Shown here piece after piece: positions 2,540 through 63,816 of a stretch of DNA of 64,000 bases; within the stretch, counting starts at the first letter, position 1, and each line of letters begins with the position of its first letter. The stretch lies in the NCBI GenBank assembly GCA_965227345.1, contig OZ245755.1:387896-451895 (forward strand), read 5' to 3'. The notes under the pieces are model-generated. The model was not told the DNA's origin. It worked only from the letters and a program-made list of their open reading frames with translations, and searched no databases. The DNA comes from Sphingomonadales bacterium. Lineage in GTDB: Bacteria > Pseudomonadota > Alphaproteobacteria > Sphingomonadales > G965227345. The translations under genes were made by a program, and so were the position numbers.

Positions 2540-3619
2540 TTACATCCTTATATCGGCAAGCGTCAGGGCATCGCCCCGGAGGCGGTCAACGGTCATCAGC
2601 TGCCCTGTAATTTTATCTGTCTCATAGGGCGCAAGCGCGCCTTCCGGTGCCGGACGCAGGGCTTTCAAGTCTTCTGCTGTCAGCACGTCACCGGCCTTCA
2701 CATCCCGCGTAAGCCGCAGGCACCGGCGCTGTACGATAGCTGTTTGTTTTTCATTCTCTTCGATACGCTTGATCCCGTCGCCCAGCGCGGCTTCCAGTTC
2801 TCGCGAACGATATACCATTTCCGCCCAGCTTTGGGGTGTCATGGAGAAAGGATGATCCGGCCCTTCCCGATTATTATCATCGGTAAAATGCTTTTCGATA
2901 ATTCGCGCCCCCAGTGCAACGGCACCAAGTACCGTGGCATGGCCGGGAGTATGATCGGAAAGCCCCAGTACCATATCAGGATACCGCAGGGCATACGCTT
3001 TCAGTACATTCAGGTTAACATATCGAAAATTCTCAAGGTCGCCGGTATAGTTGGTGTTGCACTGCATCAGCACAATCTGTCTGTTGTGCGCGAGAACAGC
3101 CTCTACCGCCCGCTCGACATCCGACATGGAAGACGCTCCTGTTGCAAGGAAGACCGGCTTGCCTTTTTTGGCAATATGCGCCACAGCATCTGTCCAGGTA
3201 ATGTCGCCGGAGCCCACCTTGAATGCCGGCACCACTTTGGCAAATATGTCGATGGCAGCAAAATCATACGGCGTGGTCATGAAATCGATATCGGCGGCCT
3301 TGCAGGTTTCGATCAGGTGCGGGGTCCAGTCGCGTGGCGCTTCATATTGTTCGTAAACCTGATAGACAGATTTTTTCCAGCCCGCCTGATGAGACACCTG
3401 CCCGCCCAACGCCCTGAAGCCTTCGTCACTGACTATATCCTTTGCCAGAAAATGCTGAAACTTTGCCGCATCAGCTCCGGCCTCTTTGGCTTGCCATACA
3501 AGCGCCTTTGCACGCTCCAGGTCACCGTCATGGCTCGCGCCGATATCGGCAATAAAATAAGCGGGGCGATCAAGCCCGATTTCCCGGGTACCAATCTTTA
3601 TTAAACTGTCATACAGCAT
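2540..3619 (-). CDS. NeuB/PseI/SpsE-family nonulosonic acid synthase with C-terminal SAF domain
   Basis: ADAAKFQ, FKVGSGD, GLSDHT and IEKHFT motifs; SAF tail RRCLRLTRDVKAGDVL. Confidence 0.93.
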   Translation of the reverse strand: MLYDSLIKIGTREIGLDRPAYFIADIGASHDGDLERAKALVWQAKEAGADAAKFQHFLAKDIVSDEGFRALGGQVSHQAGWKKSVYQVYEQYEAPRDWTPHLIETCKAADIDFMTTPYDFAAIDIFAKVVPAFKVGSGDITWTDAVAHIAKKGKPVFLATGASSMSDVERAVEAVLAHNRQIVLMQCNTNYTGDLENFRYVNLNVLKAYALRYPDMVLGLSDHTPGHATVLGAVALGARIIEKHFTDDNNREGPDHPFSMTPQSWAEMVYRSRELEAALGDGIKRIEENEKQTAIVQRRCLRLTRDVKAGDVLTAEDLKALRPAPEGALAPYETDKITGQLMTVDRLRGDALTLADIRM

Positions 3620-54163: not shown

Positions 54164-56071
54164 TCATGAATGGAAATAATCATAAATTTTCCGGGCAAGA
54201 GCAATGCTGATATTCGGCACGGATGCCAGATCTTCGACCCCTGCTGCAGTAACTGCCTGCGCAGAACCAAAATGATTCAGCAGGGCGCGCTTACGTTTTG
54301 CCCCCACACCTGGCAGACCGTCAAGCTTTGATTTTCGAATATCCTGTGAACGCCTGGCCCGGTGGCCGCCGATAACAAATCGATGGGCTTCATCGCGTAG
54401 GCGTTGCAGGAAATAAAGCACCGGGCTGTTTGGCGGCAGTTTGAAGGGCTCCCGTCCCGGCAGATAAAAATCCTCGCGACCGGCATTCCGGTCCGGCCCC
54501 TTGGCAACGCCGACAAGGGCCACGTCTTCAATACCCAGATCAGCAAGAACCCCTTCGACGGCGGATAATTGTCCGGTCCCGCCATCAATCAGCACCAGGT
54601 CAGGCCATTGCCCGGCCGACCTTTCCGGGTCTTCCTTGACCAACCGGGCAAACCGTCGTGTAAATACTTCACGCATCATCCCAAAATCATCGCCGGGCGA
54701 CAGATCCTTGTCCTTGATATTGAACTTGCGATAAGCATTTTTATCAAAGCCTTCCGGCCCGGCAACAATCATTGCACCCAGCGCATTCGTCCCGGAAATA
54801 TGGCTGTTGTCATAAACTTCAATGCGCCCGGGCGGCGCTTCCAGATCAAAGGCGTCAGCAACAGCACTCAGCAATCTGCCCTGAGATGATGCTTCCGCCA
54901 TACGCCGATCCAGCGCGTCTTTTGCATTTCGCACAGCAAGATCGACAATTTTCCGCTTTTCGCCGCGTAGCGGCACCTGCACCCGCACCTTGTGGCCAGC
55001 GGAAATCGTCAGGGCCTCGCCTAAAAGATCCATTTGATCAAAAGCAGCATTTACAAGAACGAGCCTGGGCGGGGGCTTGTTATCATAAAACTGTGAAATA
55101 AAGGGCCCGAGAACAGCATCAGGGCCGTGATCGCGATCATGACGCGGGAAATAGGCCCTGTTGCCCCAGTTCTGTCCGTTGCGAAAGAAAAACACCTGAA
55201 TACATGTCTGGCCACCATTTTGATGTGCTGAAAATACATCAGCGTTCGGCAACATTGCGCTATTTATATCCTGTTTCGACTGTACATGCGCCAATGCCCT
55301 GAGCCGGTCCCGGTAGACCGCCGCCGTTTCAAAATCCAGACCGGCACTGGCTTCTTCCATGAACCGGGACAATTCCTGTTGTATTTTACGGCTCTTCCCA
55401 ATGAGGAATTCTTTTGCCTCCTTGACCAGCGTGTTATAATCAGCGGCTGATATCCGCCCGACACAAGGGGCTGAACAACGCTTGATCTGGTATAACAGGC
55501 AAGGTCGCGAGCGTGATTCAAAGACTGAATCAGAACATGTTCGCAACAGAAAGGCCTTTTGTAGGGCATTCAATGTTTTATTGACCGCACCGGCTGAAGC
55601 AAAAGGGCCAAAATATTCCGTCTTTTTTTCCGAACGGGCCCCGCGATGCTTGCTGAGATGTGCCCATTCATGACGGCGATCAATCTTGATATATGCGAAT
55701 GACTTGTCATCCCGCATCAGCACATTATAAACGGTTTTGTACCGTTTGATCAGATTGGCTTCAAGCAGCAGCGCTTCAACCTCGGTATTTGTGGTCACGA
55801 ATACCATTGATCTGGTTGCAGCCACCATGCGGGCGATCCGTTGAGACAATTGCCGGATCTGGGTGTAACTGCTAACCCGGTTCTTCAGATTCTTGGCCTT
55901 GCCCACATACAGAACAGTCCCGTCCCCGTCCAGCATCCGATAGACACCCGGTGTTGGCGGCAGGGTTTTAAGATACTCACGAATAACGTCAACACCCTGG
56001 AATGCCGACGCCTCCTTGTCAGGATCGTCATCAGGCACGGTCGAATCAGATAGGGTCCTGTCATCACTCAT
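54164..56071 (-). CDS. uvrC: Excinuclease ABC subunit C
   Basis: PGVYRM...[38 protein letters not shown], HhH. Confidence 0.97.
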
Positions 56072-56175
56072 CGTTAAAGATCCATCGGGATTATTCCCTG
56101 TGTTCCAAGGCTTCCGGGATATTTCCCGGGAGGCCCGAATCCGGCTTCATATCAGACTCAAACCTGCACGAAATT

Positions 56176-56209
56176 TTATCAAAAATCTATCCACTATTCC
56201 TGTGGATAA
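56176..56209. promoter_or_regulatory. DnaA-box cluster (DARS-like head-to-head arrangement)
   Basis: TTATCAAAA (56176), CTATCCACT (56187), ATTCC spacer, perfect reverse box TGTGGATAA (56201). Confidence 0.7.
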
Positions 56210-56471
56210 CTTGGTGCAAATCTATGATTTAATATGATCTAAGTCGCAGATACCCTAGAGTCACACCTCTTTGATTAAAAATTAGGCATTTTTAATAACT
56301 AATTGAAATATATACATTTTATCAAAGTCAAGTCTTAACATTTCCTTGATTTTAGTCAAAAACGCAAGAATGTCGGTTTTGTGACGTGTTTCATTTTTGC
56401 ATGTGCACAACTCAAGTGTCACATATTCCTCTGATTGCCTGCAACATCAATGCCTTATCATGCATATTTGA

Positions 56472-56885
56472 TTATTCAGAGAAACGTTCTATTTCAACCC
56501 CAACGCTTTCCGCTTCGGCCATGATTTCCAGTTTTTCAACCCGAACTCTGGCGCCTTTGACACGGTGGTCCTGCAGGCACATATCGGCTATTCGCTCGGC
56601 CATGGTTTCCACCAGCTGAATATGCCCTGCCCCCAATATCATTTTGACGCGACGCACAATCTGGTCATAACAAACAATCGACCCGACATCGTTGTCAACA
56701 ACCTCCAGATTTTCCTCAACGGACAGATCAATGTTGATACGGATCGGCTGGGTTTTGCCTTTTTCATGGGCATAGGCCCCAATATTCGCATCCAGCACAA
56801 GGTTGCGAACAAAGACATGTCGGATACTTCTGCTCGCATCCGCAATTTTCAGCGGATGAACATTATTCTGTGGCGGCTTCGTCAT
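56472..56885 (-). CDS. folB: Dihydroneopterin aldolase
   Basis: IGAYAHEK..TQPIRINIDL, YD, HIQLVETMAE, VRVEK, VGVEIER. Confidence 0.92.
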   Translation of the reverse strand: MTKPPQNNVHPLKIADASRSIRHVFVRNLVLDANIGAYAHEKGKTQPIRINIDLSVEENLEVVDNDVGSIVCYDQIVRRVKMILGAGHIQLVETMAERIADMCLQDHRVKGARVRVEKLEIMAEAESVGVEIERFSE

Positions 56886-61657: not shown

Positions 61658-63816
61658 TAAGGAACGCTTTTGCCCTTGCGCGCGCGGGTCCCGGCCCGGC
61701 CTGCGGTTGATCGCCCGCGTTGCCCGTCATTCGCCTTCCGCAGAGTGCCGCCGATCCCAAGATCATTGGCCTCCAGCTTGCGGATTTCATCACGAATGCG
61801 GGCAGCTTCCTCAAACTCCAGATTACTGGCAGCGTCCAGCATTTTCTTTTCAAGACCGGCAATATAGCTTTTCAGATTGTGACCGACGAGATGCTCATCA
61901 TCCACGCCGGTATCCACCGTGTAATGGTCTTTTTCTGCCACATCCCCCAGAATATCGCCGATCGATTTCCGGATCGATTCGGGCGTAATGCCATGCTTTT
62001 CATTATATGCCGTCTGAATTGACCGGCGCCTGTCCGTTTCATCAATGGCCGCTTTAAGACTTCTGGTCATCTTGTCGGCATAAAGAATAACCCGACCGTC
62101 GACATTTCGCGCAGCCCGCCCGATGGTCTGGATCAGGGATGTTTCCGAGCGCAAAAAGCCTTCCTTGTCGGCGTCCAGAATAGCCACCAGTCCACACTCG
62201 GGAATATCCAGGCCTTCACGCAGCAGATTGATCCCCACAAGAACGTCAAAGACCCCCAGACGCAGATCACGGATAATTTCAATCCGTTCCAGCGTATCGA
62301 TATCCGAATGCATGTACCTCACTTTCAGACCGCTTTCGTGCATATATTCGGTCAGGTCCTCGGCCATCCGCTTGGTCAGGGTGGTCACCAGTACCCGCTG
62401 CCCCCTGTCAGCACATATGCGCGCCTCTGCCAGCAGATCATCCACCTGACTTTCAACAGGCCTGACGATACAAGGCGGGTCAATCAGACCGGTTGGCCGG
62501 ATGACCTGCTCAACGAAGACACCGCCTGATTGCTCCAGCTCCCACGGGCCGGGTGTTGCTGAAACAAATACGGTCTGTGGGCGGGTGACATCCCATTCAC
62601 CAAATTTCAATGGGCGATTGTCAATACACGATGGCAGGCGAAAGCCAAAATCTGCCAGCGTTGATTTGCGCGCAAAATCGCCCCGCTCCATACCACCAAC
62701 CTGAGGCACCGTGACATGGCTTTCATCGGCAAATAACAAGGCATTGTCGGGCAGATATTCAAACAGCGTCGGCGGCGGTGCCCCCGGTGGTCGCCCCGTC
62801 AGGTAACGGGAATAATTCTCGATACCTGCGCAAGAGCCTGTCGCCGCCATCATCTCCAGATCCAGTTGAACCCGCTGTTCCAGACGGGCCGCTTCAACAA
62901 TCTTGCCCTCGGCGTTCAGCTCTTCAAGACGGTGCTTCAGTTCCAGCCTGATGCTTTTTGCCGCCTGATCCAAAGTCGGACGTGGTGTGACATAGTGGCT
63001 GTTGGCATATAGCCGGACATCATTAAGTGACGCGGTTTTCTCACCTGTGAGCGGGTCAAATTCAACAATCGATTCAAGTTCATCCCCAAAGAAGGACAGG
63101 CGCCATGCCCGGTCCTCGTAATGGCTTGGGAAAACCTCGACCACGTCACCACGCACCCGGAATGTACCCCGTTGAAAACCGGCGTCATTGCGCTTGTATT
63201 GCAGCCCGACAAACTGGCGCAGCAATTCCCGCTGCTCATATATTTGTTCGACTTCAAGCTTGATCGTCATGGACGAATAGGCTTCCACCGATCCGATGCC
63301 ATAGATACAGGACACACTGGCCACAATAATCACATCATCGCGCTCAAGCAGGGACCGGGTAGCCGAATGGCGCATACGATCTATCTGCGCGTTAATTGAC
63401 GCCTCTTTCTCGATATAGGTGTCGGACCGGGGGACATAGGCTTCGGGCTGATAATAGTCGTAATAGGAAACAAAATATTCGACCGAATTTTCCGGAAAAA
63501 AGCTTTTCATTTCGCTATATAGCTGTGCGGCCAGCGTTTTATTATGCGCCAGTACCAGCGCGGGGCGCTGCACAGCCTCAATCACCTTGGCCATCGTATA
63601 GGTTTTGCCAGAGCCGGTGACCCCCAGCAGGACCTGATTCTTCTCACCGGTTTCCAGACCGGTCACAAGTTCCCTTATCGCATTCGGCTGGTCCCCTGCC
63701 GGTTCATATTCCGAAACAAGTTTAAACGTCCGTCCGCCTTCCAGTTTTTCAGGAAGCACCGGCCGATGCGGCACAAACATGGGATCAATAACGGCGTCTC
63801 GGATTGATTTTGACAT
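61654..63816 (-). CDS. uvrB: Excinuclease ABC subunit B
   Basis: [56 protein letters not shown]. Confidence 0.97.

Follow-up and report, generated by a model that had tools for sequence, protein, structure and literature searches.

Do Alphaproteobacteria carry a chromosomal site that regenerates the active, ATP-bound form of the replication initiator DnaA? To our knowledge, no sequence element of this kind is known from the class, which includes the main model for bacterial cell-cycle control. The question is raised by the gap between folB and uvrC in a 64,000-nt stretch of a Sphingomonadales genome (contig OZ245755.1, positions 387,896 to 451,895; "the window", whose positions are used here unless genome coordinates are given). 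An earlier reading of this stretch, made from its sequence alone, had proposed a DnaA-reactivating site resembling the DnaA-reactivating sequences (DARS) of Escherichia coli. We put the probability at about 0.55 that the folB-uvrC spacer is a self-contained DnaA control module of the DARS type. What has been observed and supports this reading is the layout of the boxes, the sequence identity with DARS1, the occurrence as one copy, the location away from the origin, the conservation across the class and the fixed internal spacings.

Geometry of the DnaA box trio

DARS are defined by DnaA boxes I and II lying head-to-head 5 bp apart and by boxes II and III pointing in the same direction, with spacings highly conserved in DARS1, DARS2 and predicted candidates of other species (PMC6868365). 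Three boxes in the folB-uvrC gap have these directions, with spacers of 5 bp (I-II) and 3 bp (II-III) (Table 1). The opposed pair flanking ATTCC had been recognized in the sequence-only reading and was recovered as described. Box III, with two mismatches to TTWTNCACA, was absent from its list and completes the DARS core layout. A weaker box proposed 2 bp upstream of the pair (TTATCAAAA, 56176-56184) was rejected as a fourth DnaA box, since relatives carry an A-tract at this position and no box.

Table 1. Features of the folB-uvrC spacer and its flanking genes (window positions).
Feature	Position	Strand	Description
DnaA box I CTATCCACT	56187-56195	+	two mismatches to TTATCCACA; head-to-head with box II; nearest uvrC
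Box I-II spacer ATTCC	56196-56200		5 bp; length and letters as in E. coli DARS1
DnaA box II TGTGGATAA	56201-56209	-	perfect TTATCCACA read on the - strand; same in E. coli DARS1
DnaA box III GGTGCAAAT (+ strand reading)	56213-56221	-	3 bp past box II, same direction
Palindrome TTGATTAAAAATTAGGCA	56271-56288		16/18 to class consensus TTGCCYA-W5-TRGGCA; starts 49 bp past box III
IHF-like site TAACTAATTGAAA (+ strand reading)	56296-56308	-	12/13 to WATCAANNNNTTR; 7 bp past palindrome
AAAGTCAAG block	56324-56332		after IHF-like site; fixed distance, conserved in own order only
uvrC	54164-56071	-	TIGR00194, E 6.4e-156; transcribed away from box I side
folB (dihydroneopterin aldolase domain)	56472-56885	-	upstream neighbour, box III side

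Single perfect boxes occur at chance level (38 in the genome, ~31 expected), and the window holds 8 boxes with up to one mismatch against 12.9 expected. The trio geometry, the three boxes being allowed up to 2, 1 and 2 mismatches against TTWTNCACA, was found once in the 4.05-Mb genome. Its expectation is 0.08 per genome, as estimated from 12 block shuffles.

Positions 56160-56240 were searched with blastn against 5,426 complete E. coli genomes. A chromosomal site was present in 5425/5426 genomes, with an identity of at least 99% in 5,424 records, and in the chromosomal matches listed all 23/23 nt of window positions 56188-56210 were identical. The site lies between bioD and uvrB in the one record examined, which is the spacer assigned to DARS1 (PMC6015884, excerpt). 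The resemblance to DARS1 suggested by the sequence-only reading was borne out as full identity over these 23 nt of the DARS1 core. Alignment to the DARS1 and DARS2 cores, suggested as a check, gave shared spacers of 5 bp and 3 bp. For this comparison the DARS2 core of E. coli MG1655 was placed by its box II with one mismatch (PMC6868365) and by an IHF site about midway between the DnaA and Fis sites (PMC11724364, excerpt); it has the same two spacers.

Position relative to the replication origin

The gap (56072-56471) had been described as unusually long and AT-rich, and is so: it spans 400 bp, and its GC content is 37%, compared with 51.7% for the window. The co-occurrence of DnaA boxes, an IHF-like site and AT-rich sequence in such a gap could also indicate the origin of the chromosome, a second origin or the relic of one. 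Cumulative GC skew reaches its minimum near 2.2 Mb (ori) and its maximum near 0.2 Mb (ter). The module is at 0.444 Mb, ~88% along the left replichore, and the skew is negative across the whole window. The GC-skew check proposed to exclude oriC was thus answered by sign changes near 2.2 and 0.2 Mb and none at 0.444 Mb; the distance from 2.2 Mb shows that the module is not oriC. Neither a skew minimum nor a dense box cluster was found at the module, and no 500-bp window with at least four consensus DnaA boxes exists anywhere in the genome. Module coordinates also vary among the single-contig genomes of relatives. An origin is barely conceivable on this evidence and was ruled out. The dnaA gene itself (G000:C1:3646428-3647933) lies ~1.4 Mb away from the GC-skew origin near 2.2 Mb.

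Conservation across Alphaproteobacteria

Conservation was examined in the order of the source genome ("own order") and in the class Alphaproteobacteria as a whole. DNA searching of 40 same-order genomes returned short matches exactly on the boxes in 7, and the motif was found between folB and uvrC, in the synteny SDR-folB-module-uvrC, at 10/11 relatives' loci. The box pair was then sought with the pattern TCCACNNNNCCTGTGGATAA, allowing up to one mismatch, fixing the 5-bp spacer and excluding box III. It matched 93/201 own-order genomes (4 hits for the reversed-pattern control) and 169/401 genomes of the whole class (9 for the reversed control among the matches listed), nearly always once per genome. 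A sequence-only module profile (132 positions, E up to 0.001, E-values rough owing to shortened calibration) matched 107/151 class genomes sampled one per family, mostly in single copy. By these rough values the best E was <1e-8 in 93 of the 107 matching genomes, mostly at full length. Several genomes of only 0.8-1.1 Mb were among those matched. The whole-class pattern and profile tallies include one unpublished genome, G232, on which no claim depends. G248, G220, G218, G326, G331 and G247 showed three to six profile matches instead of one, and G248 contains a nearly perfect palindromic box pair (C1:1839162).

Features outside the search pattern were compared in 71 distinct alphaproteobacterial sequences (36 own-order, 35 other-order). 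The box III register had at most one mismatch in 41/71 and at most two in 62/71, and shifted registers mostly had three or more; the 3-bp register was the best-fitting one. Box I position 2 was T in 65/71 and position 3 was A in 59/71, neither being fixed by the pattern. The proposed check on the box pair upstream of uvrC found the layout conserved across the class and nearly always ahead of that gene, the 5-bp spacing being fixed by the pattern.

The module is not universal in its own order. Within the largest own-order family the TCCACNNNNCCTGTGGATAA pattern was found in only 2/75 genomes. All three genomes inspected from this family (G007, G015, G022) had no module and no folB before uvrC, with a single perfect box kept in one, which suggests lineage loss. 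In two genomes of another own-order family the boxes are degenerate, of the TGTGGAAAA type, and the palindrome and IHF-like site are both intact.

The head-to-head pair is an inverted repeat, and could instead encode a - strand RNA hairpin acting as a weak terminator, as an attenuator in a leader of uvrC or as the end of a small RNA. A terminator scan reported an 8-pair stem at 56209-56187(-) followed by ATTTTTGATA, and the 56-nt fold reached -10.3 kcal/mol (z = -2.2). The stem has only three G-C pairs, however, and an Rfam search of 55900-56700 at a permissive threshold gave no matches at E up to 1. Changes in box I at positions 1, 3 and 9 are not matched by compensating ones in box II, a weak test because box II is largely fixed by the search pattern. 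Box III and the more distant fixed-offset sites lie outside any stem, and the E. coli trio has the opposite orientation relative to its flanking gene. We consider a hairpin very improbable and ruled it out.

Accessory sites at fixed offsets

Two further sites accompany the trio on its box III side. The inner 15 nt of the palindrome (56273-56287) fit the Fis consensus GnnYAnnnnnTRnnC (as in PMC8682772, excerpt). Offsets of this palindrome and of the Fis consensus in relatives were counted from TCCAC of box I. A palindrome with at least 15/18 matches was found at +80 to +82 in 36/36 own-order and 28/35 other-order sequences; left flanks gave none, and shuffles gave 0/720 (own-order) and 5/700 (other-order). 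A stricter form of the Fis consensus matched fully at +80 to +87 in 35/36 own-order and 21/35 other-order sequences, with no matches in mirror controls. The Fis/NtrC-like site listed by the sequence-only reading is therefore present and keeps a fixed offset in relatives.

YAANNNNTTGAW, which is the IHF consensus in reverse, was found at +25 from the palindrome start in 31/36 own-order sequences and at +23 to +26 in 16/28 other sequences (consensus as in PMC10380432, excerpt). The IHF-like site originally picked out at ~56445 (56445-56457) has no conserved offset; the conserved one is that of Table 1. Box III, the palindrome and the IHF-like site all lie outside the search patterns yet recur at fixed offsets, and so confirm the module independently. 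Between box III and the palindrome, a GGCAG...TTGGGGTT stretch (~56240-56262) is conserved only within the own order.

A high-affinity DnaA box and an IHF-like site outside the origin would also suit a sink or inactivator of the datA type, which would titrate DnaA or, with IHF, promote ATP hydrolysis and so restrain initiation. datA likewise requires IHF (PMC10380432, PMC8682772, excerpts). The head-to-head 5-bp pair is nevertheless a mark of DARS, unlike the head-to-tail boxes at oriC (PMC10380432, excerpt). Three boxes are few for titration, and the 23-nt identity is to DARS1, not datA. These points make a datA-type site quite improbable.

Cell-cycle gating by CtrA and CcrM had also been proposed. 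The CtrA consensus is TTAA-N7-TTAA(C), and no full TTAA-N7-TTAA is present in the 400-bp gap. The two TTAA-N7-TTGA sequences named for CtrA (56292, 56335) are half-matches without conservation; the one at 56292 overlaps the IHF-like site, and its TTAA half is not conserved. These sites were rejected, and CtrA gating is not supported. The CcrM target GANTC is present at 56137, 56155 and 56258, as claimed, which is no unusual number for a gap of 400 bp (mean of 1.37 in shuffles, P(>=3)=0.15).

GANTC recurs at set places in relatives. It falls inside the box I-II spacer in 27/71 sequences (offsets +5/+6 from TCCAC), and is not found in the spacer of this window. Between trio and uvrC it occurs at -17 in 22 and at -44/-45 in 27 of 71 sequences, and 47/71 have at least one within -80 to -1, compared with ~15 in shuffles. 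The proposal of CcrM gating thus fares differently by level: the window sites are at chance level, and relatives carry GANTC at fixed offsets. Taken as a whole, the interpretation as a DnaA-reactivating site is partly supported: the DARS core layout, class-wide conservation and non-origin position speak for it, and its CtrA gating finds no support.

The same layout outside the class

A public species-genome scan with a pattern that included box III returned at least 120 stretches, mostly from Gamma- and Betaproteobacteria with a few from Alphaproteobacteria. The sample analysed further, mostly beta/gamma, comprised 108 sequences among the matches listed, from loci not counted as alphaproteobacterial. 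Among these listed matches, the Fis consensus was found at +82 to +84 in 30/108 (31 across +80 to +87) and a strict IHF site at +115 to +118 in 24/108. A layout of trio, Fis consensus and IHF site therefore recurs in beta/gamma loci and is not peculiar to Alphaproteobacteria.

The nearest open reading frame among the beta/gamma matches listed was priA on the box I side in 19/102 and xseA on the box III side in 12/98. Other neighbours in this listed set were hemN-like genes (8-9), rmuC (5), hemE (4), uvrB (3) and dnaE (2). The matches listed include close kin, so these counts are descriptive only. A trio beside repair genes is recurrent, with uvrC here, uvrB and mutH in E. coli, and priA and xseA elsewhere.

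Linkage to uvrC

The - strand gene order is SDR reductase gene, folB, the 400-bp gap, uvrC and pgsA, with 116 bp between the uvrC start codon and box I. uvrC lies on the box I side and is transcribed away from the module at 30/30 own-order loci (own genome included) and at 21/30 other-order loci returned. The remaining other-order loci were three one-mismatch hits without a trio and six trios without uvrC within 1.5 kb. The distance from module to aligned uvrC start ranged from 28 to 477 nt. The window also holds uvrB at ~62635-63732 on the - strand (G000:C1:450530-451627), ~6.6 kb away from the start of uvrC. As the genome contains only one trio, there is none of the DARS-like kind ahead of uvrB. 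A promoter scan gave two weak - strand candidates, 56422-56393 and 56376-56349, both upstream of the module, and no convincing sigma-70 promoter between box I and uvrC. Candidate counts were at shuffle level.

The module also occurs apart from uvrC. The trio of G510, G351, G373 and G349 is separated from uvrC by more than 100 kb or sits on a different contig, and the regions upstream of uvrC in these genomes contain no box pair. The palindrome is kept at three of the four loci (G510, G373, G349), and G349 is a full-length profile hit (E 4.3e-18, a rough value). In G510 the module still adjoins folB, and its other neighbour is a murein endopeptidase gene.

Linkage of this kind raises the alternative that the boxes serve the uvrC promoter as a DnaA operator and nothing more. 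DnaA, IHF and a regulator at the palindrome would then repress or activate uvrC and make excision repair follow the replication state, with the nucleotide state of DnaA unaffected. The fixed side and orientation beside uvrC favour this view, as do the fixed GANTC offsets between trio and uvrC in own-order relatives and the priA, xseA, rmuC, uvrB and dnaE neighbours among the listed beta/gamma matches. E. coli offers a precedent, in that the DARS1 boxes overlap the promoter uvrBp3, which DnaA represses (PMC6015884, excerpt). Spacing within the module (5 bp, 3 bp, +80 to +82, +25) is, however, far tighter than the distance to uvrC, and in at least four genomes the module has survived apart from this gene. 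Box I faces uvrC here, and box III faces uvrB in E. coli. A single box would be enough for an operator, which leaves the exact DARS geometry unexplained, and the missing sigma-70 promoter between box I and uvrC is a further difficulty. We regard the operator as a somewhat unlikely explanation. A self-contained nucleoprotein module explains the facts better, given the exact DARS core, the single copy, spacings tighter than the uvrC distance and survival away from uvrC.

Candidate partner proteins

The DnaA of the source genome and that of E. coli share 43% of their aligned residues. Walker A and B are retained in the former, as are the Arg finger R285, L290 and domain IV residues that we take to be DNA contacts. 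Three HU/IHF-family genes are present. All five HTH_8 (Fis-type) matches fall in open frames of 458-505 aa. The motif from chromatin immunoprecipitation sequencing of Caulobacter NtrC resembles the E. coli Fis motif (preprint 10.1101/2023.06.06.543975, excerpt), which we treat as a lead, not as evidence; the main text of this preprint makes no mention of uvrC.

Weighing the DARS reading and its proposed mechanism

Several observations weigh against a DARS-type module. Boxes I and III each carry two mismatches, and box III is weak. E. coli Gln208, a residue of the head-to-head interface, aligns with Tyr225 of the source DnaA; DARS-dependent release of ADP requires Gln208, as shown for E. coli only (PMC6868365). 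The HTH_8 search of the source genome found no small Fis or Fis orthologue. The module runs core, Fis-like site, IHF-like site, in contrast to core, IHF, Fis in DARS2. Its absence upstream of uvrC in the largest own-order family means that it is dispensable. The strict fixed-orientation link to uvrC (51/60 loci) would be equally expected of a promoter operator, and the frequent DNA repair and replication genes beside beta/gamma trios fit a transcriptional role too.

If the spacer is a DARS-type module, it could work as follows; we infer every binding and catalytic step by analogy with E. coli. DnaA would bind the perfect box II first. More ADP-DnaA would then join at box I, head-to-head across 5 bp, and at box III, head-to-tail across 3 bp. 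Contact between two head-to-head AAA+ domains would loosen ADP, and nucleotide-free DnaA would leave and rebind ATP, enlarging the initiation-competent DnaA pool. IHF at its site beside the palindrome may bend the DNA and bring the palindrome binder into contact with the DnaA complex, in the manner of IHF and Fis at DARS2. In a genome without small Fis this binder would be another protein, and NtrC/NtrX-type regulators with a Fis-type helix-turn-helix are the obvious candidates. Because the module lies so close to the uvrC start in a fixed orientation, DnaA occupancy probably modulates uvrC transcription too, as at DARS1 and uvrBp3.

A broader and unlikely possibility may be worth stating. The module could represent a common ancestral proteobacterial machine for recharging DnaA, made up of the trio, a Fis-type helix-turn-helix site and an IHF site, with DARS2 as a rearranged descendant. 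In Fis-less Alphaproteobacteria it might be driven by an NtrC/NtrX-type regulator and often gated by CcrM through GANTC in the spacer, with the repair and restart neighbours (uvrC, uvrB, priA, xseA) coupled to the DnaA nucleotide state. Were this true, NtrC/NtrX and CcrM control would link nitrogen status and the cell cycle to the initiation of replication.

What is at stake is a non-coding module of ~125 bp with an exact core, kept in ~70% of sampled alphaproteobacterial families and even in genomes under 1.1 Mb. It offers a precise, mutable target for asking whether DNA-based recharging of DnaA is a general proteobacterial mechanism, and it raises the question of which protein replaces Fis. 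The recurrent link to repair genes (uvrB, mutH, uvrC, priA, xseA) hints at a coupling of initiator state and repair capacity. The literature search found no discussion of such coupling beyond uvrB in E. coli.

Comparison with known systems

Fujimitsu 2009 reportedly predicted DARS candidates in other species. Our literature search, which did not cover that candidate list, turned up neither an alphaproteobacterial DARS nor any account of DnaA boxes at uvrC, in line with the statement of the sequence-only reading that no characterised one was known to it. DARS-like sequences are described as conserved in many proteobacterial species (PMC10380432, excerpt), and several E. coli-related species have DARS at similar genomic positions (PMC4585315, excerpt). 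The DARS2 core with its IHF and Fis sites is conserved among E. coli-proximal beta- and gammaproteobacteria (PMC4245941, PMC5742627, excerpts).

With datA the module shares a DnaA box cluster and an IHF site outside the origin. It differs in that datA promotes ATP hydrolysis, the head-to-head 5-bp pair being the mark of DARS (PMC10380432, excerpt). The DARS-like modules of Beta- and Gammaproteobacteria are distinguished from this one by an IHF site in forward orientation, ~10 bp further away, and by other neighbours (priA, xseA, hemN-like genes, uvrB).

DARS2 and the module have in common a core trio accompanied, on the side of box III, by sites of the IHF and Fis types, with spacings conserved among relatives (PMC5742627, PMC11724364, excerpts). 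As a possible DARS2 subtype, the module shows IHF-like and Fis-consensus sites at fixed offsets, a differing order of these sites, HU/IHF genes in the genome and no small Fis. DARS2, in the rppH-mutH spacer, is activated by IHF and Fis and requires both, and small Fis is what the source genome lacks. The whole module measures ~125 bp and DARS2 256 bp, the Fis-like site of the module was not seen to be covered by a box V-type cluster, and its box II is perfect where that of DARS2 has one mismatch. The rppH-mutH spacer of MG1655 contains a second trio of DARS geometry (L202 3449-3485), ~180 bp upstream of mutH and separate from the DARS2 core at ~3134-3170. Its box I has two mismatches, its box II is perfect and its box III is of the GGTG type, with 5 bp separating I from II and 3 bp separating II from III.

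DARS1 differs in the side on which its gene lies, uvrB being on the box III side and uvrC here on the box I side. Box I of the module starts with C, and box III differs. The module carries conserved Fis-consensus and IHF-like sites, whereas DARS1 reportedly has no need of accessory proteins (PMC11724364, excerpt). The two are nonetheless alike in their three boxes, box directions, 5-bp and 3-bp spacers, spacer letters ATTCC and box I positions 2-8. Both are non-coding, present in single copy and outside oriC, and both lie upstream of a nucleotide-excision-repair gene.

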